Below, in pieces: positions 242 through 53,826 of a stretch of 64,000 nt of DNA (positions are counted from its first letter, which is position 1; the number at the start of each line of letters is the position of its first letter). This DNA comes from Callorhinchus milii (Eukaryota). The translations under genes were made by a program, and so were the position numbers. The notes beneath the pieces were generated by a model. The model saw only the letters and a list, made by a program, of their open reading frames with translations. It searched no databases and had not been told where the DNA came from. The stretch covers positions 35,900,001 through 35,964,000 of the forward strand of contig NW_024704742.1 in NCBI RefSeq assembly GCF_018977255.1, read 5' to 3'.

Positions 242-1307
242 CTTTCGCGTGGGAACAAACATTGAGTTTTAACGCACAGCCAAAGGGGGGGAATCTTTTT
301 AAACTGAAAATTTATTTGCGATACTTACATCCACTCCATTCACTCTGTGGGAGACACAAATTTTTCCTTTTCTGTCGTGGTAATTTTATATCCTTCAATT
401 CTGAGTTTGTGGTCTAAATGTGATAGTTTAATTGGATTGCATCATTGAAGCCACTCAACCTTTTAAGAAGCTGGATTATATTCCAAAACATTAAACATAG
501 TACTAAGAGGCTCTGGCACTTATTGCATGACTAATGCTGTAATGTTGCTGGTCAGTGAATACTTAGATGCAGATTGTTTGTGTAAAAACTACATTGACTG
601 GTCCTTGATTCTGTCACAATGGGCCTGGAACTATTCTTGAAATGAGGGTAAGTAAGGCTGTCCACTGTCACCCACCTTATTCGATCTATTCATCAATAAT
701 CTATTGAATTCCACTGAGGGGGGTGGACTTGGTGTGTCTGTCCCAGCCATCATCCTTTAAATCAAAAATGTAGAAGATCACAATGTTTTTTCAGTGCTGT
801 GTTCTTATTTAATAATAATAATAAAAATAATAAGGCACTTTTCTACCTCCATAACCTTTTCAGAGAAGCAGTGCCCCTTTAAGTGCAAATGAATCCTTTT
901 CCTGTTGACCTCTTTTCTTGTTTATGCCACTTGCTACTTGCCTCCATATGTCTTGCTTTAGCTGGGAGGGCAGAGTGCCCTAGACCACAGGCATCTCCTC
1001 AATTGGTACTGAGGCCACTCCTTTATCAGTACATTTGTCCTCTGTCTGCGCTCCAAAAATTCAATTCTGGCTCTTGGTTTATTGGACTTGGGTTGGTTTG
1101 AAGAGACTAGTTGACAGAGAGGAAATGAATCATCCTCTGGCAGTCAGGTACCAGACTAGTTACTATTTAACTCCTGGAGCGAGGGAACAAATGGACTTTA
1201 AATGGAATGCCTTAAATGGATCTTAAAACAAGTGATGTCTTAATCATGCATGTAGCAAGTTTGATTTCAGATTTAAATTTTCCTATCTGCATGTTGAGAA
1301 TATTTAT

Positions 1308-1703: not shown

Positions 1704-4171
1704 TGTACAATATTACAATATAATCGTTTTCCTTTTTTTCAAGCACCATTATTCAAAATGTGAAAGCATAATTTTTGAATCAAGATGTCTAATGATAAAA
1801 TTGAGTAATTAATCCTGAACAACTGAGGTTCAATTCTATTTGATTCTAGTGACAAAAATCTACTACAGTGATGACTTAAAAAAATTGTTGCTCTGGAATA
1901 CACTTCTAACATGTATACAAAAAGATAAATATTTTTAAATAAAAATGGCCCTCGTAAACAAAAGGCCCTCCATTTGATTTTAGATACAAGAAGATTTTAG
2001 TTTACAGAACATTGTTACAACAGAAATCCTTTAAAGGCAAACAATGCTTTATGTGGAGGAGGGATGGAATTGGAATATAAAGACCTTCCACCAGACGACT
2101 GAAAAGATTTACAGTGAATGTCTCCTCCCTCAGAGATACAGTCTCTGTTTCATGAGTCATGGAGACCCAATGATGACTCATTTGACTCATGAGACTCATC
2201 TGAAAAAAAGTACTTCTCAGATAACACATTCAATGGGTTCATCTTTGCTGTTACCATTGAATTGACTAGGGATTGACTTCATTCCCAGGTTTGGACATTA
2301 GCCCTGGGAATCAAACATGGATTAAAAATTTAATACTGCACAAGACTTAAATCTTTGGCTAGTTTGGAAATGTTCTACCGAGTGTTCAGAGTATCTGGGC
2401 CTGAAAACAAAGTGCTAACTCAGCTACACTTGGCCTACAAAATTGATACCACCAATGGTCTGCAAACATGAAACAGGCTCATTCTTTGAGATTTTTAGCC
2501 TTGTCATTTGCAGTTTGGGAACCTGGATTGTTTCAGTGTTATTTTAAAGGATAACAACTAAACTAAATTGTTATCCTGGAAACAGCACTTGAAAGGTTAT
2601 CTCGGTTTTGAAAACATCAGTCTTGCAAAGTGCTGGCTGGTGCAACATTTTGGGCACTACTGCTATTCAGATACCAAGAAGGGGTATTTCAAATGTACTT
2701 TGTTCCTTAATTAAGGAACAAGATGTGTGTAGGAATACTGCAATTTTGAACCCTATATTTTTCCAGTTTTATTACTGTTGTTTTCTTGTTTCTTTCCATT
2801 TACTTCTATGGAAACATGGCAAGTTATCATTCAGATAAAAAAATGTTTTGCTAGTGACTATTATGTTGTAATTTGATTCAGCTTGTTTCATTTGTGGTTT
2901 ATGTGGTTTATCATTGCTGACAATTTGATTCGCTTTAATTTGATGACCGTTTCCTTATGATTTATCTTTATTAATTTCAACGCAATGGCTGTTTTACAAG
3001 TCATGGTATTCCAAGCAAATTCATTCAATTTGTTTGGATTGCAAACTGGCTGATTGTCTCATTAGTTCCATTTCAGTGCAGTGCTGATTTTCCTTCTCCT
3101 TGTATTACTAGCAATGCTGTGTTGCGGTGGGAGCTGTTTATTTTTGTTTCTTCACTGGTAATTTAGCTTTGCCACTTTTTCTGAGGGTTCTTTTCTTCCA
3201 CATCGTAGTTTCCATTGGTCAACTTATTACTGTACTTAGGATTCAGTATAGTTTAACCAAATTACTGTTTTTTTAATTCTTTGCGGGCAGTCAGCCATTC
3301 TACCTAATTAAGGAGCATGGAGCATGTTACAATTTTTAGGCAGCAACTCTTACTGCTTCTGTGTGTCTTTGCATCTTCTTCAGAGAATTCACATAGAATA
3401 GAATCATCTAAGATTTTAGCACAGAAGCAAACCATTGAGTCCAGCCTGGTGCTAGCTTCTATATTAGAGCTAAATGCCCTAATCCCAGTTCCCTGCTCTT
3501 TCCTCTTTTATATTGTTTCTCATCACAGACTTGTCCAATTTCCTTTTCAGATGTTATGGCCTTAGCTTGAATAGCACTTGTGGATAAGCATTTTAGTGGG
3601 TTCATGTTCTATTTATACTGTGCTGTTTGCGGTGAATTGATGTGAACATTCATTGAGTCACCGCGAAAACTAAGGCAGTACAGTTTTATAATCCAAATGG
3701 GATTCATGTTGGAGTGTACCTTCCAAAACCACCTAAAGGTATTTTCTCAGAAAATTCCTTTGAAAGACTGCAATATAATAAATAATCCTTACATTTAACA
3801 TTTAACATTTTACATTTAACCCATTATATTTTTTACCTTTCACACCCGGAGGACATTTCAAAGTGTTTCACAGGATACTATAAAATAGAGTGACAGTGTT
3901 CGCTGACGGCAAAATGTAATGAAGACGGTGCAATCAATTTGCTTCTTGTTTGAAAAGAGGCCTTAAAATTCTTGAAATGATCTTTTGGGCTGCCCACCAC
4001 TATTTAAAGGATCATTTTTAATGTTTTTAAACAGCCAGTCATAGTACAGTAATGTTAAACAACTAACTGATGTTCAGGACTACAACAATAATAACAACTT
4101 GCAATTAATATAGCGCTCTTCATGTGGTAGCATCCCGGATTTAGGAGATCCCTCGGCATGCATGTAGTTGC

Positions 4172-5903
4172 TGTTGCACACAACTTTCATCAGCCATGAT
4201 AAATTGATCACCCCCCACCCATCCCCCACTATACTCCTTCGACCCTATCTCTCCCTCCTCCCTCACCGCGATTGCTCGCAAACTCAAACCCACCACCTGC
4301 TCCCTCAATTCCATCCCCACTTCTCTCCTCATCTCCCAGCTCCACTTTCTGGCCCCTCTCCTGTCCGACGTCATCAACCTCTACTTGTCCATGGTTCAGT
4401 TCCCACCCCCCTAAAAACAGACGTCATCACCCCCATCTTGAAAAAAACCTTCCCTGTATCCATCCCTCCTCTCCAGCTACTGCCCCATCTCTAACCTCCC
4501 ATTCCTCTCCAAGGTCCTGGAACGAGTCATTGCGTCCCAGCTCCGCTCCTTTCTCTCTCACCATTCCCTCTTTGAACCCCTCCAATCCGGCTTCCTCACT
4601 GCCCACAGCACGGAAACAGTCCTGGTCAAAGTCACTAATGACATTCTGAACATCTGTGATCAGGGCTCCTTCTGCCTCCTTGTCCTCCTCGACCTCTCTG
4701 CCGCCTTCGACACTGTCGACCACTCCATCCTCATACACCGCCTCTCCTCTTTACTTACTCTTCGTGGACCTGCCCTTGCCTGGATCGAATCCTATCTCTC
4801 TCACTGTCTCCACTTTGTTGCCTCTAACGGTTTCTCCTCCAGCCCCCGCACTGTCACATCTGGCGTCCCCCAGGGTTCTGTCCTTGGTCCTCTCCTCTTC
4901 AAACTGTATATGCTCCCCCTTGGTGACATCATCTGCAGACATGGGGTCAACTTCCATATGTTTGGGGACGACACCCAACTCTATCTTTCTGCCTCCACCC
5001 TCAACTCCAGGACCGACAGACTGGCTGTCGGACATCAAGTCCTGGATGAGGGCAAATTTCCTACAGTTGAATGTGAACAAGACTGAGGCCCTCCTGATTG
5101 GTTCGCGCCAGCGCCTCAGCAACTCAGGCTCTGGCAGCATCAACCTCCATGGTTGCACACTACAACTCACCAGCCAGTCAGGAACCTGGGTGTCTTGTTC
5201 GACCCTCAACTGTCTTTTCTTCCCCACATCCAAGCCATGACCCGCTCTGCCTTCCCTCACCTCCGTAACATCGCCCGACTCAGCCACTACCTCACTCTTC
5301 AGGCCACTGAAACTCTTGTTCATGCCTTCATCACCTCCAGGCTCGACTATGCAAACGCCCTGGTTGTCGGCCTTCCCAACTCCTCCCTCCACAGGTTGCA
5401 GATAATCCAGAACTCTGGAACCCGTGTCCTCTCCCGCACCAAACTCTGTGACCCCATTCTCACCCGACTCCATTGGCTCCCTATCCTTCAGAGGATCCAG
5501 TTCAAGATCCTGGTCCTCACTTACAAAGCCGTCCATGGCCTCTCTCCACCCTACCTCTGTGACCTCCTAACCCTCGCTCCCTCCACTCAGCCGGCTCTGG
5601 CCTGCTCCACGTCCCCCGACCCACCCGCTCCACCATTGGTGGGAGAGCCTTCAGTCACTCTGCTGCCAACCTCTGGAATTCAATCCCCCAATCACTCCGC
5701 CTCGTCCTCTCCTTAGCCTCCTTCAAGTCCCGCCTCAAAACCTTCCTCTGCGACCATGCCATCGGCCACACCCCTTCCCCTCCCCTCCCTTCTCCCACCC
5801 TGACCCCAGCTCAGGTCTGAAATGCTGTACTCTGTCCAGCACCTTGGGACATCCTCCCTACGTGAAAGGTGCTATACAAATGTAATCTTGTTGTTGTTGT
5901 TGA
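4172..5903 (+). mobile_element. L2-clade LINE, 5'-truncated, frameshifted RT (ORF2) plus 3' UTR
   Basis: RT motifs in shifting frames: PISNLPFLSKVLE, QSGF..AHSTET, LLDLSAAFDTVDH, GVPQGSVLGPLLF, FGDDTQL, WMRANFLQLN, VRNLGVLFD, LVHAFITSRLDY, LHWLP. Ends in a stem-loop plus (TTG)n. Confidence 0.95.
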
Positions 5904-21200: not shown

Positions 21201-21207
21201 TCTACAG

Positions 21208-21337
21208 CTTCTATAACTGGGATTCACACTTGAGTGCAACCAACGCCAGCCTACATTATGAGGTCACTGCAAAGAATGTCTCTGGACTCGTTTTCAAGTC
21301 CAAGAGAGACAGAAACATGTTAAGTGTCGATCCAAAG
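21208..21337 (+). CDS. CFAP299: CFAP299 (C4orf22) penultimate coding exon
   Basis: Acceptor ttctacAG and donor AAG|gtaaat. Translates (S)FYNWDSHLSATNASLHYEVTAKNVSGLVFKSKRDRNMLSVDPK, matching recalled human [44 protein letters not shown]. Not in the ORF track. Confidence 0.92.
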
Positions 21338-21584
21338 GTAAATGACTTTTTATCTCTTCCTCTACAATTTCTCCCATATCTTTAAGTACAAATAATATTG
21401 GTAAAAACTCAGAAACGCGGATTGAATTTAGAAACTTTGCTCTTAAATATTACATTTTCATAATTTCACAAAGATCTAGTTAAATGTTTTAACTTTGACA
21501 ATCCATGCCAATGTAGACGCATAGCAACATTAATGGATTTCAATCTTCCCCCTTCCTCTATGGAGTGAGATGGTGAAAATTAGC

Positions 21585-21750
21585 AAAACAGTGCTGGGCC
21601 ACACAGAACAGTAAGTTAAAAGTTCGAACTCCAGCCTGTGGTGAGTTAACTTGCTGATCTCAACGAGAACAGCAGTTGGCCACTACAATTGGCCTCAATG
21701 CTCCTGTGTTTGGAAAGTGAAAAAGCAGCATCGGTTCTCAATCACGATCA
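21585..21750 (+). mobile_element. Old SINE-like repeat, family unassigned; related minus-strand copies near 16805-17010 and 44590-44765
   Basis: The shared core GAGTTA..GCTGATCTCA...CTACAATTGGCCTCA.TG recurs in reverse at 44617-44700 (ACTGAGGCCAATTGTG...TGAGATTAGGTAATTC). Confidence 0.55.
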
Positions 21751-22749
21751 AGGCTTTGGGCATGATTTCTCTGTGTGAACCCTCTATGGGCTTATAATAC
21801 AGATGGGACACGTTTCATCGTTGAAGGTTAGGTAGTGTATGCTGGGACAAAAATTGTCAAAACTTTAACAGAATTAGTAGGTCTTCTCCTTAATACTAGT
21901 TTCTAGTTTTTCAAGACTAGTATGATGTGTTACGTGACATAGGCAAAGGACAAGTTCTAAGGACCCCAAGTTTAATGCAGCATATTGTGATTTGGCACAT
22001 TGTGATCTGCCCAATTTACATAAAGTGTTTTGCTAAGTGAGCAGTGTAACTGTAACATTTACATTTTTTTTGCTAACGAGTTTATAAAGACTTTTCACAT
22101 TTCCTCAATCCCATGTCATCTGTAGATTTACCATTTTACTGCCTAAAATGCCTTCTATTCCATCTGCTTATTAAAATGATTAACAGTGCCTTCTAAATAG
22201 ACAGGGGAATCATATCTTAAGGCCACTGCAACTGGTTCCATTGGGTCTTGTCCGTACCTCACGTTCGATGAACTAAACACTAGCTGCACAAACTAACAAA
22301 ATTGTACATTGCTCAAAATATTCCCCTTCGCCATGAAAATCACAACACAAACCTGGAGAATTGGCAACCCACTATTTCTTGCTAAGAGTAATTAAGCCAC
22401 TTAGTGTGGTTCACATTCAATTTACAAAGTCCATAGAATAACCTCAGGTACTTTTCAGTCCAAATTATGTGAATCTATATGATTCATGTATAGTGTGTCC
22501 TTATGTGGAAATCAAAGCATTCCTTACACAACTTAGCATAAATAGTATAATTCCACTAAGTAAGTATGTGTGGTATGATGCTGTGCATCTCCAAAAGTTT
22601 GATGCAACCAATGGAAGGCCACGATGAGAACAACCATTAATCATCATGGCAACAAGCACAACAATGTAGATCAATTCAACTAAGTCTTTATCAAACTTAA
22701 TGGTATCATAAGTATATCCAAAGGAAATAGAATGGAAATCAGAGTGTGG

Positions 22750-24155
22750 GGATGCCACAGAAAGACGTCACAGTGCAAATACTCAGATGGCATTTGAAGA
22801 TACTGTGGCCAGTCATCAAGAAAGTTTGTTTGGTGTTCATGGCTGTATGACTGCAGCAAAGACTAGGATGGAAGGATATAACAGCTGGACAGAGTCAACA
22901 TGAGCAAAAACACCTTTCGAACTGCCTCGTAGTTCAAGAAGAGATTTGGAAAGCAAGGTAAGGGTGCCTTGTGCATGATATTGCTGAATGATTTAAGTGT
23001 TTGCAATGTAGGAGTAATGTTTGTGGATGTTTCACAATTTAAAGTTGGCATAATTAACACTGGTGTTAGTTATCATCACAATTTGCTATGTTTAGTGTGT
23101 ACTAACACCACTTGATTCAAACTAAACATGGTGTAATAATTAGGCAGCACTAAATGATAATATTTCCCCATTTACCCTCCCTTTGCTCTGACTTTCAAAG
23201 ATCAACCATTTGCTGTGCGCAATTGACTGCCGTGTTCGCCCACAAATATACAGTCAATTCACTTACAGTGTGTTCTGTGAAGCGCTTTGGGACGTCCTCC
23301 TGGCGTGAAAAGCGCTATATCAAATGCAAGGATTATTATCAGTGTTTTCCTTTTGAGGTGAGATAATTTTTTTTAAATATTTGTAATTTGGGCTCTTAGA
23401 AAGTGTGGTAAATATTATTTTTGGTTTAAAAATTATTCTTTGGTTTAAAAGTTATTTTCCAGGCTCAATCTTCCAAAGAATGGCAAAATTCACACTCCTC
23501 ACAGACATTTATTGTATTATACCACACATAGTTTGAATCTATTAATGTTAGCTCACTCTAAATACAGCATGAATTATTGTCCACTTGTAAATTTAACTCT
23601 TTACTGTATGTATGCCTTATTTTGTTCTCAAAGTTATTCTACCCCTGGTTTACATTCCCTAAACAGGAAAAGACATTGTCAAGAAAACAAAAAATAAAGA
23701 AGCCGGGTGGATATTCAGTGCTGGCAAAACTAAAGCCAGCAGAAGAAATAATTGCACATCTCATTGACAATGAATTATCAGAGGTTGTGATGCCACTGAT
23801 AGGTGAGGGACATGTCACCCAAGGTAGGTGACATCCTATGCTTCCTCCAAGTTGCAGTATCCATAGAGCTATCCACTTTGCAGTTATTTGATGCAAATAG
23901 TATATGACTTTTTGAATGAACTTTGAGGAAGCTATGGACAATAATTACTGTGCTACTGCATTTAAAGAACCAATGACTGAAGCAGAGCTGCCAACAACCC
24001 AAGCTGAGGAAACCACAGAGGAGGAAGATGAAGATGAAATCAAAAGCTTTGACTCATCCATGGATGACATGTCTTATTATGCTAATTCCACCTCGCCCAT
24101 AATGAACATTATGTCACAGTCCACCGCAAAGCCAAGCACATCAGTGAATCCCGAG
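22750..24155 (+). pseudogene. Decayed Myb/SANT-like (NAIF1/MSANTD-type) Harbinger ORF1, spliced
   Basis: Exon-like block A (about 22750-22957, ending AAG|gtaag): AFEDTVASHQESLFG..WKDI..DRVNMSKNTFRTAS*FKKRF. Block B (23667-23823, cag|...|gtagg): EKTLSRKQKIKKPGGYSVLAKLKPAEEIIAHLI. An acidic block follows, ending GAG|gtatgg at 24155. Contains stops and frameshifts. Confidence 0.6.
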
Positions 24156-25222
24156 GTATGGCTGGGTATATGGTACACCAACAACAACAACTTGCATTTA
24201 TATAGTACCATTCATGCAGAGTAGCGTCCTGGAACACTTAAGTTATGGTATGGCAAGTTACACAACAATGGTAAGTTACACAACACCAGTGGTGGAGAGC
24301 ACAGTAACAGTGGGGATAGAGAGAGCAGAGGTACCACCTTGCAGCTGATCTGAAGCAGCTGGATCACATGTCCTATAAGGAGGAACAGGCTCTGTAGCCA
24401 AACATGGTACAATGGAGACTCTGGACCTGTGTGCTCCAACTCAAAAGAGACCTTGAGGGTCTCAACAACAGAGCAATGGAGAAACTTAGTGGACGTGTCT
24501 GTTGCCTCAGATTACCATCTTGGATGGTCAGGCATTCATAATGCTGGGGTGCACATCAAGAGAGGTTTAAATCCCATGACAGACTGCTAATCAAATGAAT
24601 CAAAGTGTGTTATGATAGAGGGTGGAAATGGCAGAGGTGTCAGTTGTAGTTGGTGAGCAACTGTCTGATGAGGATTCGGTGGAGCAGGCTCTACATCCAA
24701 TACAAACATGTTTGCAGCAAACGCTGACCAACTCTTTAGATGAGGTGACAGCCCCCTTTGTTACCGCATTGGTATCCCAATGAGAGCATTCAGTAGGGCT
24801 GCATTCGTGTATCTCCCCCTACAGGACCAGCTCAAATCAGTACAGTATTTTGATATAGGCTGGGCACTCTGAACACGTATCTATCCCTCCAGTGATGCAC
24901 CCCATCATTGAGGATAAGTCCACCTTCAACAGCGCAACACTTTTAGGCGAACAAGAAGCAGAATTCTTTCACCATGTTCTGTCCTTAAAAAAAAGCGTCT
25001 TGAGGTCATTCTCAGGCTACATGGACAGCAGCTAGCATGAACCCCTTCCTGTCTTCAAGAGGCAACCACCCCGTCTACAGGCCATAACCTCCACACAACC
25101 TAGCAAAGGTTGTGTGTAGATACATAGACAAAGCCCGTGTGCGGGTATTAGGAAGAGACAACATGCAGCAAAGCACACTGATGGACAGGCACATTGCTTG
25201 AGCTGTAAATATGTTCAGTCTG

Positions 25223-25352
25223 CAAATATTGTAAATACATGTTGTAAGTCTTGTAAATACATGATGTAAATATTGTAAATACACAATGTAAATATTGTAA
25301 ACACACAATGTAAAGATTGTAAATACACAATGTAAAGATTGTAAATACATAA
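25223..25352. repeat. Tandem repeat of about 22 bp (AATATTGTAAATACACAATGTA-like)
   Basis: About 5-6 visible copies, located between the two Harbinger ORFs. Confidence 0.85.
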
Positions 25353-25492
25353 ATAAGTAAAGGTTTGGTTTAAATTGCATTATATTAATGTTTGACATTT
25401 AATTGTTTATCTCTTGCAGGACAGGTACATGAATAACAAAACCCCAAGTGGGTCCCACCTCTTCTTAGTTGCAGTTGCAGATCATAGTACTT

Positions 25493-26330
25493 TTAACCAA
25501 CAAAAACATTTTGTAACAAACATTGATGAACAGCTCTACCAGTGCCATGTTCTTCCTAACCATCTTCATCCCCATTTTCCTCCGAGCTATTGTCAGTGTC
25601 TATCCACTAGATACCCTCCAATGGAAATATCCCTTCCTTCACTCCTTGCAGTTTTTGTGGGTACTTACTGTCATGGTACCCCTGAGTAATCCGAGCGCGG
25701 AGAGCTTTCGTTTAAATTTTTGGCTCTCGTAAAGGTAGTATAGTATCTGATTTCTGATGTTTGAGGGTTCATTAATGACTTCCTTAGCCAGGGAGTAAGA
25801 TCATAGTCATTGTCCCCGATGAGCCAAACCTTCAACTTATTTGGATCCAAGCTAGGATGCTTGAAGTCCATAAAATGAACACATCATGCAATAAGCCAGG
25901 ATAACGGCAGTTGAGATGTAAGATTCTGCCTTGACTGTCCCCTATTACCTACACATTAACACTGTGAAACCCTTTCCTGTTAATGTAGATTAGGATATTT
26001 CTGTTAGAAACATTGGTTACCACTGCATGTAGTCCATGTCCATAAAAGCTCCTCTGCTGTGCTACTTGTACATATGGGCCAAGAGTGAACAGACTATACT
26101 TTGGACTCTTCCTGTATAAGGCTTTTGTAACCTGTGGAATTACAAAGTGTGCAACATAAATCCTTCCACANCCCCCGACGTCTTCCACAGAGGTTTGAAA
26201 ATGAGTCCGTGGCAAAAAGATTAAGCACTAATGTCACTTATCCTTGATCGACAAGTCAGTAAATCACTCCTTGGCTGCAGTGTAAGCGTGAACATAGTTA
26301 CAGAGCTGTATTAATTTCTCAATTAGCTAT
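25493..26330 (-). pseudogene. Decayed HARBI1-like (DDE_Tnp_4) PIF/Harbinger transposase
   Basis: Colinear motifs across frameshifts: LIQLCNY..LQPRS, VTLVLNLFATDSF/QTSVED, YINRKGFHSVNV, DSQGRILHLNCRYPGLLHDVFIL, WLIGDNDYDLTPWL..LMNPQTSEIRY, DYSG, acidic linker, then GRAVHQCLLQNVFVG*. Confidence 0.85.
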
Positions 26331-27907
26331 ATTTATATTTCACATAGCATTGATTTCATGTCCATTATTCCCCATGGATAACATTAACCAAAAATAAATG
26401 CTGGTCCTGTCAGTGTCGCCCACATTACAAGAGAAGTAAAAAAAAGACCTGCTCTGTCTATGTACTATAACTCTTTTAATTCCTTCACTGTAATTACTTT
26501 ATATGAGCAGCCAAAATATCATGGAGTTTGGCGCCTCAGGAGAGGACAGGATCAAGCTTCACTGAGATGTCTTCCAAAGTCCAATAGCCTGCAATATTTA
26601 CCATTAAGGCTCAGGTATCACTGACTTACCGCAAAGTGCCTGTCAGAAATAGTCACCTGTTCCCTATCTTGCAGTCTTCTTCTATTCCCTGGGTTTTTTG
26701 ATGAGGAGCAACACTGGAATATAAGACTGATTTTTTTTCACAAGTTTATGTTATTTCATAAATGGCTGTAGAGTCAAGTCTCATTTGCGGGGGATATAGC
26801 CTTCAAACAAATATCAGATCCGAGTGTGTATTTCTCGTTTTGCATTTAACATTGTTTCTTTTATTTTTGGAGATAACTGGAGTGATGGTAAGTTTCAATA
26901 TCAACGTTAATTACTTGTTAGTCAGATACATAGTAAAGCTTCTTCCTTTTTACCCCAACAATGTATTTTAATTCCAATATCAAAAGAGCAACCCCAGCCT
27001 CAACATCCCTTTCAGTCTGTTTCCCCATCCCTTCAATCAGTACTAGTGACTGCCTCTGAGTAATACTGGCTTTGGTGCTGAGTTGTGTCAAGCAGCTGTT
27101 TGCATTGAATACGGTCTGAAATGCAGTGATGTCTACCAAGAATACTTAATAAAGAAACTAACTGGAGAGAAGTCACACCAACTCACAGGATCTCCACTAC
27201 AATGCAATGTAGTTCTGGAGAGAAGTTCAATATTGCCATGTTTTAGACCCCAGTTGTCTAAAAGGATGTACCATCAGAGGAAATTAATCATCAATGAAAT
27301 GTTTTTCTCCTGCTGCTGGTGATGTCTTTTTAATTTTGTGCCAGCAAAAAATTCTGACATTTTAACAGCTATGATAGTGGTGAAAGTTTACAGGCCTAAC
27401 AGAATGGAGCAAACCTGCTGAATTGAAAACACTAAAAATGAAAGATTGCACCAATTCTGCCACACCCTACCACTGATCTCCCCATATTGATGCAACTTTG
27501 CCACAGGCACTATAAGTCCTTACTACTGTAAAACACAGCTCTTATTGGTCACAGTTGAGAAAAACCCCTGTTGGAAAATGGATAGTAACAATTACACCCT
27601 GATAATTTAGATGTATACCCTTGTATCTACTGTTAACATATTTAAACCAATCCAAATTCACTTTACATAAGATCCATACAGCCCACAAAAACAGAACACC
27701 TTTATCCTTTCAATGTAGACCGAAATCGAACCCGGGTCCTAGAGGGTAAAACAATTGTGTTCCAACTCACTGCATCTTCAACACAGCAGTATACATTCCT
27801 CATAAGCCAAAGAAAAAAATAACAATCTTTAAAATAAAATAACATACTTCAATATATCACCATGCCATGTCTTCAGCTATCAATTTATGTTCCTTTTTCA
27901 TTTTCAG

Positions 27908-28009
27908 AACCTTCCTTCTGATACAGTCAAACGGACTGTGGTTAAGACCGATCTTTATGCCCAAGCTGTCATTTTTGATCACTTGATACGAAGAAAGACT
28001 TTGGCATAA
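27908..28009 (+). CDS. CFAP299: CFAP299 last coding exon
   Basis: Acceptor ttttcAG, phase 0, compatible with the previous exon. Translates NLPSDTVKRTVVKTDLYAQAVIFDHLIRRKTLA*, matching the recalled human C-terminus ...TELYVQAVIFDHISRRKT. AATAAA at 28098 and 28522. Confidence 0.92.
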   Translation, partial: NLPSDTVKRTVVKTDLYAQAVIFDHLIRRKTLA

Positions 28010-30648: not shown

Positions 30649-33600
30649 TTGGCTTTAATGTAAGGTGTCAAGCATTTCACAGCTAATGTTGTCAATTAAG
30701 TCAGAGTATTTCACATCAATCAATTTGTGCACCTCAAGGTCCCACAAACATCCGTTTATCTGGAGCAATGTTGGCCAAAAGATCAAGAGTCTGGCTAGCC
30801 AGACTATTGGGGGATGGGGTGGTGAGATCAGGTCCGGTGAACCAGAATTTCTGGCTAAGTGTAATTACAATGAGAGGACCAGCATTTAGTGGCATTTTTC
30901 AAGCAGAATAAAGCGAATAAGCCGAATTTTAAAAAAATGTTTGAGTTTTGGGCCTGGTCAGGCTAGGTTGGTTAGCCGAAGTTTACTGTATAGCACGTTC
31001 TGGGGATTCACTCCCTGACACAAAGAAATGCTAGAAATGGAATAACCTTGCATCTGCTCCACTGGATCCTCAGATGATTGAAGTAATTTCAAAACTGCAG
31101 CCTCTTCTTACACATCGAGTGCTTACCTAGATAGAAAATTGCTATAGGATTCTGATTGCATCTGAACTCCTTGGTTGTGCCTATTGTTTCCATTATTTCC
31201 TATGTGAGGGTGGTGAAAATAATCAAGCCAAACATAAAAGGCCTGCTTTCTCCATTAGCAAGTGTTAGGCAGACCATTTCCCATTTCTTCACACACAGTG
31301 TTTGGTGTCGCTGGAAGATTTGCTGCTTTCCTTACTCAAATCAAGACAGAGCTGCTAAACAACTTCATGAAGACGTGGCCCATTTAAGTAACTTTCTCTT
31401 TTTTTACTGCCTTCCAGTCTAGGTAGATCCAGGACAATTCTGATTTTATCCTGAATCCACCTGAAGCAGATTTGGCAAACTGTCAATAATCACAGCACAG
31501 CGAGAAGCCACTCATGTCAGTCTGTTCAGTCTCTATTGTCTTCCATGAACCAGAGCACATCAGAAACTGGAAGCATATGATAAATGATAAATGGGGTGTA
31601 AGTCACATCAGAGGCTGTAAAGAATGATATGTAACTCAAAACATTTATCTTAAGCAGTCCGTTGCTTTTAATTAAATCTGTGTATAATATATACCTAACT
31701 TGAGACACATTCTTTATTCTCGTGGCTGCTATATATTTTAGATGTTGTCAAATACAAAAATCTGTATTTTTCAGCATGTGCTTCTTGTTTCAGGAGCGTA
31801 ATTTGATGCAATTACACACATAATTATATTATTTTCAGGCATTCCACCAAGTGTAACTTACCACTTCTATTCTAAAAGCACCGACTTCGGCTGCAGTATA
31901 GTTCCTGTGAAAATTACCCTCAAGTGTATTGTTCAAGGGGTCTTTTTTTCATGTATCACTCTAAATAGTAAGTACCGGTAGGATACTCGATTCTGGAGAT
32001 TTTGCTACAGAACTCAGTACTATCTTTACCTGGCAATCACACGTACACTTGTGCACTTTTCAACAGAAGTCATGAGATAGTGATCAGGTTTAGAGACCCT
32101 GGGCAGCATTCTCCCTCATTGGGGAACTAAGTTTGATCATGGTGTCACCACGTCACGTAATAATTCGTACATTTGGTATGGCGCTTTTTATGTTGGGAGG
32201 ACGTCTTTCTTCACAGGATATACTATAAAGTGGAGTGATTGTGTGTTTTGTAGGCGAATGCAGCAGAAATTTGCCGCAGCAGTACACAAGAGCAAATAGT
32301 CTCATACATCTGTAAGACTCAATAACCAACGTGTGGTGCGTTTACTCATCTATTGTGAAAATAAACTCCTTTTTTTAAGATGATATTTTCCATTGATCAA
32401 CAGAAAAGAAAAAGCATCTGCCTCTAATTGGAGTCAGGCATTAGCCGGAAAGTTAGGCAAGTTACATTAATAATATTCCTTGCATTTGATATAGCGCCTT
32501 GTAATATCATGGAGACGTCTCAAAGTGCTTCACAGAATATACTGTAAAGTGGACTGACTGTCTATTTCGTGGGCAAAACACGGCAGCCGTCAGTAATTCA
32601 CAGGAGATGTGCGTGACTACTGGTTCACAATCTTTTGATGCCTTAGTTTCATTTTTCATAGCATTGATATGGCTGTAAGAATCTTCACTCTTAGGCTGAA
32701 CATTCCCTAAAAACTCCACTACATAGACTGATGATTGTTTGTATTCCCGGTCCATGACAGACAGTATTTATTTTTATTCCCAGAAGGAGTATTTAGGAAG
32801 CAGTAACCTGCTCGGAGATCAGAAATGTGCAGTGCTTAACTTTGAAATGTTTGTTATGTTTCTATAAACAAATTAAGGGCGTGTGGGCTTTTCTGAAGCT
32901 CATTACATCTAGAACCCACCCACCAGGCTTTCAGTTCCATTTGACCTGTAAAAAACATCTTTTGAAGTAATGAAAAAAAGGGAGAAAGTATTTGTTTTGA
33001 CTGATGTCAATACTGTTAGATATTAATTTTGATCATTTTGGTTACCTGTGGTTTCTTTTGTATTTTCCATTACTGATTTTGGTCCATCTTTTTTTGAGGA
33101 ATTTTCTGAGAATCAATAAAGTTCCTAACAGCTATACAATTTATGGACTTCTAAGGCCGAAATTTCACTTTAGCTTAAACTTTAAGACCGTTTTGTCTTA
33201 TAATATAAGATTGCATATAATGTGGAAAATTCTGAAATTTAGTCACAACTTGGAACCTATTTTTCTGCAGTTATTAAAGCCAACTAGTTTAGGTTGACAG
33301 GTGGAATTTAGAGATCCCATGGCACTAGTTGTAAAGTATCCTGGCCAAGAATCTTCCTGATAAATTCATCATTCACCTTATGGGACCTGGCTGTGCACAT
33401 ACTGACTGCAACATTTACCTACAAAAACACTTGACAATAATTATTTGTAACGTACTTTGAGGCATTTCAACACTATAGGTGCTATTATCAAATGCAAGGA
33501 TTATTATTTAAAACATCCTTGAGCTCCTCGATTTTTTTCCAGTAAGGACAAAACTCCTCATAAAGTAAAACTCTTCAGTCCTGGAATCATCCTCGTTCAC

Positions 33601-48163: not shown

Positions 48164-49049
48164 AACGTATGCTATAATACAGTATTACAGCTGGGCTATC
48201 TGTCCTCTACAAGATTATGACCCTGAGTGGCATCAACAAAGTTGTTAGCGTGTAAGAGAGACCTCTATGCCTATGCCAGGAACACAAGAGCTGCTGCAGC
48301 TGCCCATCAACATTCTGCATCAATACCAAATGCCTGCAGCGAATAGCAGTGGTGAAGCTTCACACTGCACACCCTCTTCTGTGGAGCTTTCTCCTAGGGA
48401 GCGTCTCCCTATGTGCAGATTCAAATGTATAGAGTTAGCTATTGTTGTCAAAGACAGTTCGAGCTTGCAATAACTATCGAAAAACTCTGGCTTTTCTTAG
48501 GGTAACCCACCACAAGTGTCCAATATTGTTATTGTACTTTTGTGACATTTGCTGTTTCAGGCTGCACCCTGTTTCATGCCTCCGAGGATTACATTTTCTT
48601 TTCTTTTTTGGTTTCCCCACGGTCAAGCAAACTGTACGCAATACGTGATAAACAATTATATAATAAGTAGAGTAGAATAAGTTAATTACCAACAGAGAAT
48701 CAGACGTGCAGCCACCAAGGTTGGTAAATATGGAGCTCTCTGGTTTGGATACTCTAAAGCATGGTGATGAGTTTCCGCATATGTCATACATCTGGTTAAC
48801 CAAACAAAAACACCCTAGCATTGCCATAATCTACAGCATAAGTTAAAGGAGGATTGTTTACATGGGCACCTTTTTGTGTGTGTGGCGGGGTGGCCCTGCA
48901 AGAGTGAGAAAAAATAGAAGAGCCATACGTCAGTTTTGTTACAATGCCACACTCAAATGATATGTAGACATCTCTGATAATGTGTTTGAGCATGATTTAT
49001 GTCATCATATCAGCTGTTTGCAGACAAATTAAAGGTTTGTCAAACACTT

Positions 49050-52816: not shown

Positions 52817-53471
52817 GTGGGTTTTATTGTCTAAGCTTTCTTCCACTCCTTCTTTAGTTCCCTGTAGTGTGCAGCCTTCGTGCGTAGGTCAGCAGGCAAT
52901 GCATTCCCAGCATCTGTTAAGGCTGCTTTGCAACCAGAGAATAAGAGATGCACTGGAGTGAGCTAGATAGTGCCCAAGAGTCCTAATTGTATTTATTTCT
53001 CTCCGTTCATCAGTGTTAGGTACAACTTTGGTTCTGCTCACTGCCTCCACAGTTTCTTGGAACTCAAGCTCACACCTGCACCTGCTAAGCCACAGCACAC
53101 TACATCAATGTATCAGTGTCCTACTTTGCTGAACAACTCTAAAACTGTTCATACTTTTTTTAAAGACTGTAGTTGGAAAAGACAGCAGGGTGATTCCCTA
53201 TTAAATGGACTGACCTTGGCTGTGTGAGTTTACAATGGGAATTTCCCTGATAATCCTGATTAATGTATGCCATTGGGTTAGTGATGGGGCTACATGAATA
53301 CAGTCAGATTGCACCCTTTATCTTTGGGAATCAATCTCTGCAGCTGATGGTTCCTGCTTTGGTGAATTTAGCAGAATTCTTAGTCGAACAGGGTTTCTTC
53401 GAACAGGTTAGCCCTTTGTCACAGTGATTCACAGTACCACACAGCACACAAGCAAAATCCGAAATGTACAG

Positions 53472-53826
53472 TGGAGTCATGTAACTCAGTGGTTAGAACA
53501 CTTGCCTCGCAAGCGAGAGACCTGTGTTCGTTTTCCAGCAAGGCGAAATGTTGGGCAAGTTTCCTTAGTCCACACACCTTTGTTTACCGAGCAGTAAGTA
53601 GGAACCCGGTTGTTAGTCGATTGACAGATCACTTTTCCGGGAATAATAATTCCTTAAAACAATAATAAATCACGACTGTTTGTGGGACGCTGTTGTGCAC
53701 AATTGGCTGCTGAGTTTCACCCACAAAATATACAGTCAATTCACTTTACGGTATATTATGTGAAGCGCTTTGAGACGTCTCAAAAACGTGATAAGGTGCT
53801 ATATCAAATGCAAGGATTATTATTAT
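53472..53826 (+). mobile_element. Full-length tRNA-derived SINE, long subfamily, in BMP3 intron 2
   Basis: Same head and tail as the short subfamily plus an extra internal segment (about 53578-53640); flanked by a TACAG(TGG) direct repeat. Confidence 0.9.

Follow-up and report, generated by a model that had tools for sequence, protein, structure and literature searches.

A decayed PIF/Harbinger transposon with a putative Myb-like partner gene in the last CFAP299 intron of Callorhinchus milii

The last intron of CFAP299 in Callorhinchus milii holds the remnant of a PIF/Harbinger DNA transposon, which was analysed in a 64,000-nt stretch of contig NW_024704742.1 (assembly GCF_018977255.1, positions 35,900,001 to 35,964,000 of the forward strand), hereafter the window. 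The remnant is an ordinary ancient Harbinger fossil. Probably, one ancient autonomous two-gene element entered what is now the last CFAP299 intron and decayed in place. Such an element would have carried its genes tail to tail: a Myb/SANT-like gene on the plus strand, with exon 1 at approximately 22712–22957, an intron at 22958–23666, exon 2 from 23667 and an acidic tail to approximately 24155; and a HARBI1-like transposase gene of the DDE_Tnp_4 type on the minus strand, from approximately 26308 down to approximately 25558. Two SINE pieces would later have inserted into the decaying element. By their coordinates, the two halves span approximately 3.6 kb in a convergent layout, and both span and layout fit an autonomous Harbinger of typical size. 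We infer both that the plus-strand blocks are Myb-like and that the two halves arrived in a single insertion.

The host intron was delimited using protein profiles and RNA. The penultimate and last coding exons of the CFAP299 (DUF4464) orthologue lie on the plus strand at 21206–21337 and 27908–27997 and form the upstream and downstream boundaries of the intron. Positions 156–201 of the DUF4464 profile (PF14713) correspond to window 21206–21343, and positions 202–230 to window 27911–27997. Among four runs presumed to be RNA (X1 to X4), three (X1, X2 and X4) contained a contig joint from 21335 to 27906 (cut +2, GT..AG) that spans the Harbinger remnant, and this exon–exon joint shows that spliced RNA is present in those runs. 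The exons on both sides, together with the joint, confirm the location within the last CFAP299 intron that had been proposed from the letters of the window.

The HARBI1-like transposase remnant on the minus strand (25558–26308) is real and dead, and was recognised by Pfam, a family profile and pairwise matches. With TAG read as X, the stretch 25832–26227 matched Pfam DDE_Tnp_4 at 27.7 bits (E 2.3e-6, cut-off 24.8), and a Pfam scan of the same genome returned a DDE_Tnp_4 match at window 25850–26020 with 26.8 bits. A profile of 31 full-length relatives aligned from 26308 to 25841 at 75.6 bits and from 25841 to 25716 at 19 bits, and the remnant is colinear with positions 53–264 of its 359 positions; the approximately 52 N-terminal and 95 C-terminal positions of this profile were not found. 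By these scores, coding sequence for a DDE_Tnp_4-type transposase, a criterion of the PIF/Harbinger superfamily, is present. The colinear HARBI1/DDE_Tnp_4 motifs described earlier for 25493–26330 were thus recovered from 26308 to 25716, but the stretch 25493–25716 yielded only a weak pairwise piece (25635–25558), the tail of the remnant. In total, 250 library proteins resembled the remnant at E ≤ 0.001 (top E 1.5e-9, 34–42% identity), and among ten relatives that were looked up, the named ones were 'putative nuclease HARBI1' from sharks, hake and scorpion. The frame is broken by four in-frame stops and at least two frameshifts, and the region of the first catalytic Asp motif (GFPxVxGAIDxTH) is missing by deletion. 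An active or autonomous Harbinger has open frames and a complete DDE triad; here the transposase has lost the first catalytic motif, and the frames of both gene halves are broken.

The minus-strand piece might alternatively represent a pseudogene derived from the domesticated HARBI1-like gene of the host rather than a transposon, an origin that we regard as highly improbable. A quick, unfinished tree placed the fragment in a 14-row group (SH-aLRT 92) that includes the intact 419-aa DDE_Tnp_4 gene of this genome (contig C19), and tblastn with this gene gave 48.5 bits; however, the placement inside the group is loose, the fragment is not sister to the 419-aa gene, and its branch is so long (2.47) that the placement is unsure. 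Identity to the 419-aa gene is 30%, no higher than that to shark and hake proteins (32–42%), and the putative remnant of a Myb-like partner adjoins the fragment. The closest paralogue in the genome shared 45% identity at the protein level over only 56 residues.

On the plus strand, exon 1 of the presumed Myb-like partner (22712–22957) comprises 82 codons in one frame with a single TGA (22901–22903) and ends in AAG/GTAAGG. A phase-0 GT..AG intron of 709 nt (22958–23666) separates it from the exon 2 ORF (23667–23828, 54 codons), which carries the motif KKPGG...LKPAEE (23697–23747) approximately 10 residues past the splice; joining 22957 to 23667 leaves the reading frame of both exons intact. The sequence-only reading had claimed this donor, this acceptor and a K-K-x-G-G..L.P.EE motif, and all three are present. 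Before its decay, the Myb-like coding region probably continued into an acidic-tract ORF (23916–24155). This ORF shares the frame of exon 2, with four stops between the two, and as a separate 'exon 3' it is not confirmed. The Myb-like frame is broken by the TGA in exon 1 and by these four stops after exon 2. Canonical GT sites are present at the two further proposed donors, 23824 and 24156, but the RNA contigs go through or past them unspliced: X1 record 5 (23858–24204) and X3 record 18 (24116–24205) cross 24156, and none of the contigs listed joins across either donor, stretches lacking contig coverage being disregarded. Of the introns proposed, one (22958–23666) is supported. Among 15 loci of the Myb_DNA-bind_5 type in this genome, six (L039 and five others) have a phase-0 GT donor at the place of the phase-0 donor of exon 1, the same in form and position.

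Profile searches of the plus-strand blocks were negative. The exon-1 read-through matched no Pfam family at E ≤ 10, exon 2 and the acidic ORF gave no Myb/SANT match, and none of 39 further stop-to-stop frames from both strands of 22442–27273 scored at or near a Pfam cut-off. The gathering cut-off of Myb_DNA-bind_5 (PF13873, 21.7 bits) was not reached, and the genome scan, which scored only the best candidates, lists 36 places without the window among them. Against a Myb profile made from sequences of this genome, exon 1 scored 4.6 bits (E 0.0016 at Z=1) and was the fifth best locus in the window, and hhalign aligned exon 1 with Myb in the register expected (P 0.039). By profile, the 'Myb/SANT-like helix pattern' consequently does not exceed chance, and the Myb/SANT profile search that had been set beforehand as the refuting test found no match to the plus-strand blocks. 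Exon 1 may bear a weak resemblance to Myb domains in the correct register.

In the Atlas, the ten best named neighbours of exon 2 all belonged to the Myb_DNA-bind_5 family or clan with scores of 0.75–0.85; as these scores are below 0.9 and the recognition is 2060, the result was graded as a lead only. The exon-1 ORF had no named neighbour in the Atlas. Homologues of exon 2 were not found by word search among 5.8 billion proteins (longer and near-length), nor did a word-index search with 13 aligned Myb-type ORFs of the genome give a match, both being weak evidence given the word filter. A protein search of the genome with exon 2 returned only itself. The motif expression, composed after the motif of the window had been seen, had one match in the window and none in 281 kb of other loci, and was found 0.01 (loose) and 0.0 (strict) times per shuffle in 200 shuffled windows. 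Among 11 fish Harbinger Myb-like proteins from Data S2 of PMC9179366, the Myb domain is immediately followed by T/D-GG(G)...L-x-x-(x)-E-E/D in nine, and six fit the exact expression used on the window. Within the 1.5-kb flanks of the genome's Myb-type loci, a downstream exon of the KKxGGG type was seen in one example only (L055).

RNA contigs over the plus-strand half suggest that the intron at 22958–23666 is still spliced in present-day plus-strand RNA in two studies. RNA depth was elevated over exon 1 and zero over 22972–23205 in X1, X3 and X4. X1 record 4 and X3 record 16 both end at 22955, leaving remainders of 191 and 43 letters, and the bin depths are consistent with second contig pieces from 23665. 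The splice is derived from this contig arithmetic, the joint 22957/23667 not being among the 15 of 67 joints listed. X1 contigs were continuous from 21513 to 22955. In the runs of study P2, the plus-strand contig depth was 5–12, of the same order as that of the last CFAP299 exon in X3 (13–19). Over the transposase (25780–26247), contigs showed almost no RNA depth, which is weak evidence.

It is rather unlikely that only the transposase piece derives from a transposon and that the plus-strand blocks are chance frames, with a cryptic GT..AG pair in CFAP299 pre-mRNA and a chance KKxGG..LxPxEE. The absence of a Myb/SANT profile match and the chance-level scores of the exon-1 profile across the window agree with chance frames, as do the long stop-free frames found on both strands (e.g. 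101 aa at 23639–23944, minus strand) and the pre-mRNA-like X1 contigs. However, chance would yield the motif 0.01 times per window, yet it occurs in frame approximately 10 codons past a splice after a frame in Myb register; the Atlas neighbours give exactly the family predicted in advance; the intron position is common to six Myb-type genes; and the blocks are placed exactly where the partner gene of a Harbinger is expected. A Harbinger Myb-like partner is the most likely reading of the blocks, because of the post-Myb motif, the Atlas neighbours, the conserved phase-0 intron position and the in-frame splice to which the RNA contigs point.

The apparent splicing raises two further possibilities. 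One, quite unlikely in our estimation, is that a spliced plus-strand RNA nested in CFAP299 preserves the promoter-proximal exon 1 and the first intron, being either a lncRNA or an alternative 3′ part of CFAP299 transcripts; if true, a transposon gene was recycled as a host transcript and not as a protein. A domesticated and still-functional gene pair of the HARBI1/NAIF1 kind would also be expressed as RNA with a spliced intron, as the plus-strand contigs suggest, but is improbable in the extreme and contradicted by the broken frames: the transposase has its four stops, at least two frameshifts and a deleted catalytic motif, the Myb-like frame is interrupted in exon 1 and four times after exon 2, and the transposase region has hardly any contig depth, weak as this last point is. 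The intact conserved ORF that distinguishes domesticated HARBI1/NAIF1-type genes is absent, the frames being broken. The seemingly spliced intron of the decayed element would be an example of transposon splice sites that persist in host introns long after the death of their gene.

Apart from the two SINE pieces, the Harbinger remnant is single-copy in this genome. DNA-level searches with 25400–26330, 24250–25225, 22400–22960 and 23040–23209 returned self-matches only, and within 23600–25230 the SINE piece alone is repeated in the genome. Because further genomic copies were lacking, the consensus proposed earlier could not be built, and no family, terminal inverted repeats (TIRs) or target-site duplication could be defined. 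A search for TIRs (14 nt, ≤2 mismatches; 21344–22745 against 26400–27910) gave 14 candidate pairs, compared with a mean of 14.35 in 20 shuffles, and none of the 14 had the matching TAA/TTA flanks of a TWA target-site duplication, a comparison of low power as the ends of the element are undefined. A search of the region for inverted repeats also gave no convincing TIR. The definition of TIRs and a TWA duplication, likewise proposed earlier, thus ended at chance level. Since short TIRs would be expected to disappear with decay, this outcome weakens only the claim of an intact element. The genome scan found at least 41 DDE_Tnp_4 and at least 36 Myb_DNA-bind_5 places, and no listed place of one family was 5 kb or less from a listed place of the other, both lists being lower bounds; co-occurrence thus lends no support to the pairing of the two halves.

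With neither TIRs nor a target-site duplication to tie the halves together, and no second copy to show them travelling together, two independent insertions might be considered, in which a piece of a Harbinger transposase gene came to adjoin a Myb-like gene piece of other origin, either a different Harbinger or a copied host gene. We consider this very unlikely. Both halves are single-copy, similarly decayed and arranged tail to tail within 1.4 kb, and their combined size equals that of one autonomous element; moreover, two rare partner-gene fossils would hardly meet by chance in one 6.6-kb intron. A single inserted element remains the preferred reading.

As described in PMC9392472 and PMC9179366, a live Harbinger relies on its Myb-like protein to bind the terminal repeats and to take the transposase to the nucleus and to the element ends, where the transposase performs cut-and-paste of the element. 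No such function is possible for this copy, as the transposase is broken and lacks the first Asp motif, the Myb-like frame contains stops and the termini are unrecognisable. According to PMC9179366, autonomous fish Harbingers (Harbinger3_DR, Harbinger-1_LC, Harbinger-1_OK and others) combine a DDE_Tnp_4 transposase with a Myb-like protein, as the window appears to do. By comparison of the printed sequences, those proteins and the window share T/K-x-GG(G)...L-T/K-P-x-E-E after the Myb domain, which is putative in the window, followed by an acidic region. As printed there, the Harbinger-1_OK/CC protein is interrupted directly behind its third helix by an insert with stops, which may be an unspliced intron matching that of the window in position. 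Unlike these fish elements, the copy in the window is single and broken, its TIRs and target-site duplication are unrecognisable, and it has KKPGG instead of TGGG. Its transposase shares only 30–42% identity with the transposases found. The domesticated Harbinger genes HARBI1 and NAIF1/MSANTD of jawed vertebrates have the same protein families and ultimate origin as the putative pair in the window, but are intact, conserved and unlinked host genes (PMC9392472), whereas the frames in the window are wrecked and lie side by side as in a transposon.

Ancient vertebrate PIF/Harbinger fossils such as UCON84 are described in PMC9004415 as highly degraded, mostly unannotated, detectable only at the protein level and often intronic in large genes. 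The window copy is alike in these respects and additionally retains a readable trace of a putative partner gene and one intron. It adds one more ancient relic to a kind that PMC9004415 has already surveyed in bulk. PMC9179366 reports Harbingers as undetected in the single cartilaginous fish examined, and the DDE_Tnp_4 and Myb_DNA-bind_5 places of this genome bear on that negative result. The superfamily would have been once present and long extinct in this cartilaginous-fish lineage, rather than never there.

Several repeats were also located within the remnant. The 22-bp tandem array noted earlier between the two genes lies at 25224–25349 (5.7 copies, 90% matches), between their converging 3′ ends; a role of its unit as a binding-site repeat near the element ends was rejected, as the unit is confined to the array within the window. 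Intron 1 contains an inverted repeat with 55-nt arms (23084–23138 and 23515–23569, 75% complementary), and its interpretation as a MITE was rejected since its left part (23040–23209) is single-copy in the genome at the sensitivity used. Enclosed by these arms is a fragment of an abundant SINE-like repeat (23210–23340), a later insertion with up to 96% identity to copies at dozens of unrelated loci and a summed contig depth of approximately 282,000 in X1. The second, short SINE-like piece (24175–24245) belongs to a very abundant repeat, with 966 first-look candidates in the genome and 40 of the 41 matches listed at 84–96% identity.

The DUF4464 (CFAP299) profile placed plus-strand exons along 250 kb of C1, the contig holding the window, including one at window 21206-21343 (profile positions 156-201) and one, with the profile end, at 27911-27997 (positions 202-230). 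An RNA contig joint from 21335 to 27906 (GT..AG, cut +2, 6570 bases skipped) was present in three of the four sequencing runs guessed to be RNA (X1-X4), from two studies. CFAP299 exons thus lie on both sides of the element and RNA contigs join across it, which locates the element in a genuine, spliced-out last CFAP299 intron, as the sequence-only reading had proposed. In live Harbingers, a Myb-like protein binds the terminal repeats and brings the transposase to the nucleus and to the ends, and both genes are required (parts of PMC9392472 and PMC9179366). We consider it likely that the locus is a single two-gene Harbinger, whose tail-to-tail genes would have been inserted together and later inactivated and eroded.

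The minus strand carries a HARBI1-like transposase remnant at about 26308->25558, delimited by Pfam, family profile and pairwise alignment. Pfam DDE_Tnp_4 matched 25832-26227 (-) at 27.7 bits (E 2.3e-6; cut-off 24.8 bits) with one TAG read through, and a whole-genome Pfam scan (991.5-Mb genome) recovered the locus at 26.8 bits. Among 1.84 billion representative proteins, 250 relatives were found at E<=0.001 and none at 1e-10 or better, the best reaching E 1.5e-9 with 34-42% identity. The named relatives (seven of the ten best looked up) comprised six 'putative nuclease HARBI1' proteins from three sharks, hake (two clusters) and a scorpion, and a hypothetical beetle protein. A profile of 31 full-length relatives picked from the database matches, circular for the core and not for the extensions, aligned positions 53-218 to 26308->25841 (75.6 bits) and positions 222-264 to 25841->25716 in a different frame (19 bits), and together with the Pfam match it bears out the minus-strand transposase of the sequence-only reading. 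The tail down to 25558 is weak, lies in a third frame and comes from one pairwise alignment. The remnant is dead: four stops interrupt its frame, which is also shifted at least twice, and about eleven residues are missing at the relatives' GFPxVxGAIDxTH (first catalytic aspartate); the aspartate of WLxGDxxY is retained. One assembly N within it, at 26171, falls in a codon GGN, Gly either way. A living domesticated gene pair is contradicted by the broken frames and is scarcely credible. A pseudogene of a host HARBI1-like gene would fit the position of the fragment in a 14-row tree group (SH-aLRT 92) that also holds the genome's intact 419-aa gene on contig C19, with shark proteins and a hake protein, but the fragment is not sister to that gene; the tree is quick and unfinished, the fragment is placed unresolved on a very long branch, and we judge this origin very improbable.

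The plus-strand half comprises exon 1 (22712-22957, with X for its one TGA), exon 2 (23667-23828, open frame) and an acidic ORF (23916-24224, open frame). The Myb/SANT profile match named beforehand as the test of these blocks did not appear: no Pfam family matched any of the three, and the window is absent from the 36 places listed in a genome-wide Myb_DNA-bind_5 scan. By hhalign, exon 1 aligned to Myb in the expected register (P 0.039), and against a Myb profile from 16 ORFs of its own genome it scored 4.6 bits (E 0.0016, one sequence). In a sliding six-frame scan with this profile, the exon-1 locus ranked fifth in 64 kb; the slightly higher loci (5.9-8.1 bits), at 48627-48990 (+), 755-1144 (-), 31299-31688 (+) and 53307-53624 (+), are probably chance. 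Word-index protein searches returned no relatives of exon 2, and its own genome no paralogue. In Atlas, the exon-1 ORF had no named neighbours, and the ten best named neighbours of exon 2 (scores 0.75-0.85, recognition 2060) all belonged to the Myb_DNA-bind_5 family or clan, the family predicted beforehand, which we take as a lead. The K-K-x-G-G..L.P.EE string proved to be a real family motif. Among 11 fish Harbinger Myb-like proteins with the post-Myb region printed in Data S2 of PMC9179366, nine carry T/D-GG(G)...L-x-x-(x)-E-E/D after the Myb domain (e.g., ...RTGGG...LTPFEE... and ...TGGG...LTPAED...) and six conform exactly to the expression GG.{4,9}L.P.E[ED], counts drawn from 14 of the 15 'GGG' places there. 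This expression matches the window once, at 23706 (+), and nowhere in 281 kb of other loci; shuffled windows gave a mean of 0.01, or 0.0 with two preceding basic residues (200 shuffles), and as it was devised after viewing the window, the p-value is optimistic. A solo transposase fossil beside intron DNA with chance patterns, which the missing Pfam match favours and this motif counts against, seems doubtful.

Exon 1 ends in ...DLESK at a phase-0 donor, AAG|GTAAGG, and splicing to the acceptor at 23666, ...CCCTAAACAG|G, carries the frame on into exon 2. A phase-0 GT donor straight after ...DLK+SA[RK] occurs in 6/15 Myb_DNA-bind_5-type loci of the genome (L035, L036, L037, L039, L040 and L045), that of L039 being identical to exon 1's; the best alignments to exon 1, with L045 and L039, were both non-significant. 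L036 and L037 (G000:C1:135.78-135.81 Mb) are near-identical first exons of this type, oppositely oriented and separated by about 30 kb; both end in a phase-0 GTGAGT donor after ...KSAR, and they may represent a duplicated host gene of Harbinger origin. X1 record 4 (641 nt, depth 10.2) was placed on 22506-22955, leaving a remainder of 191 letters, and X3 record 16 (194 nt, depth 7.58, different study) on 22805-22955, leaving 43. Bin depths fit both remainders beginning at 23665, a joint equal to 22957|23667 under the leftmost-cut convention, both cuts being preceded by AG. For X1, 0.39 = 10.2 x 9/234 and 9.1 = 10.2 x 182/234 + 5.37 x 50/234; for X3, 0.29 = 7.58 x 9/234 and 1.07 was observed against about 1.10 expected. 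Contig depth was 0 across 22972-23205 in X1, X3 and X4. We infer the splice 22957|23667 from these remainders and depths, as the joint is absent among the 15 of 67 joints listed. In the dead Myb-like gene, the first intron is apparently still spliced, which is the sole feature of the locus worth follow-up.

The further proposed donors, at 23824 and 24156, have the canonical GT, but contigs pass both unspliced: X1 record 5 (23858-24204) and X3 record 18 (24116-24205) run past 24156, and X1 record 4, with an end at ~23855 by depth arithmetic, runs past 23824. Exon 2 and the proposed 'exon 3' share a frame with four stops between, and no in-frame acceptor for exon 3 was evident from splice sites and translations; a gene of two exons, of which the second has decayed, is accordingly the simplest layout. 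Unique sequence from the acidic ORF to the tandem array (24180-25308) had contig depth 8-12 in both studies, and its contigs end near the array, compatible with a plus-strand transcript 3' end there. The 22-bp array reported earlier is present at 25224-25349 (5.7 copies, 90% matches), its unit occurring nowhere else in the window.

Two pieces of abundant SINE-like repeats landed within the element later, at 23210-23340 (up to 96% identity with copies at dozens of unrelated loci) and 24175-24245 (966 first-look candidates). Their summed RNA contig depths were about 282,000-308,000 and 4,000-5,000, respectively (X1/X2), and many contigs join the two, reflecting other genomic copies. The first piece is enclosed by an inverted repeat in the spliced intron (23084-23138/23515-23569; 55-nt arms, 75% complementary), which also encloses a 19-bp tandem repeat (23409-23458); a common MITE was ruled out, its left part being single-copy. 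The rest of the element tested besides the SINE pieces is single-copy, and the closest paralogous piece of transposase shares 45% identity across 56 residues; hence the consensus from genomic copies that had been suggested, and with it family and ends, is not derivable. Between the intron flanks, 14 candidate TIR pairs were found where shuffles gave 14.35, and a TWA duplication accompanied none of the 14. Among the places listed in the genome, which are lower bounds, no DDE_Tnp_4 place had a Myb_DNA-bind_5 place less than 5 kb away, and the suggested co-occurrence test therefore lends no support here. Two separate insertions appear improbable.

The locus derives from the PIF/Harbinger superfamily and works like it: a DDE_Tnp_4-type transposase is present, probably with a partner gene. 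The locus is not intact and shows no TIRs, target-site duplication or further copies, as expected of a solitary relic of great age. Bulk catalogues of ancient Harbinger protein fossils exist for vertebrates, chimaera included (in the part of PMC9004415 cited), and this locus adds another relic of an already known kind. One survey, in the cited part of PMC9179366, reported that Harbinger went undetected in the single cartilaginous fish it included, whereas the genome here has at least 41 DDE_Tnp_4 and at least 36 Myb_DNA-bind_5 places. Two of these have long intact frames, both DDE_Tnp_4, and are presumably domesticated HARBI1-like host genes: L002 (G000:C19:2536121-2539597; 419 aa, 103.9 bits) and L003 (G000:C21:6290476-6293967; 371 aa, 100.1 bits). 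In the quick tree, L003 stands on a long branch far from L002.
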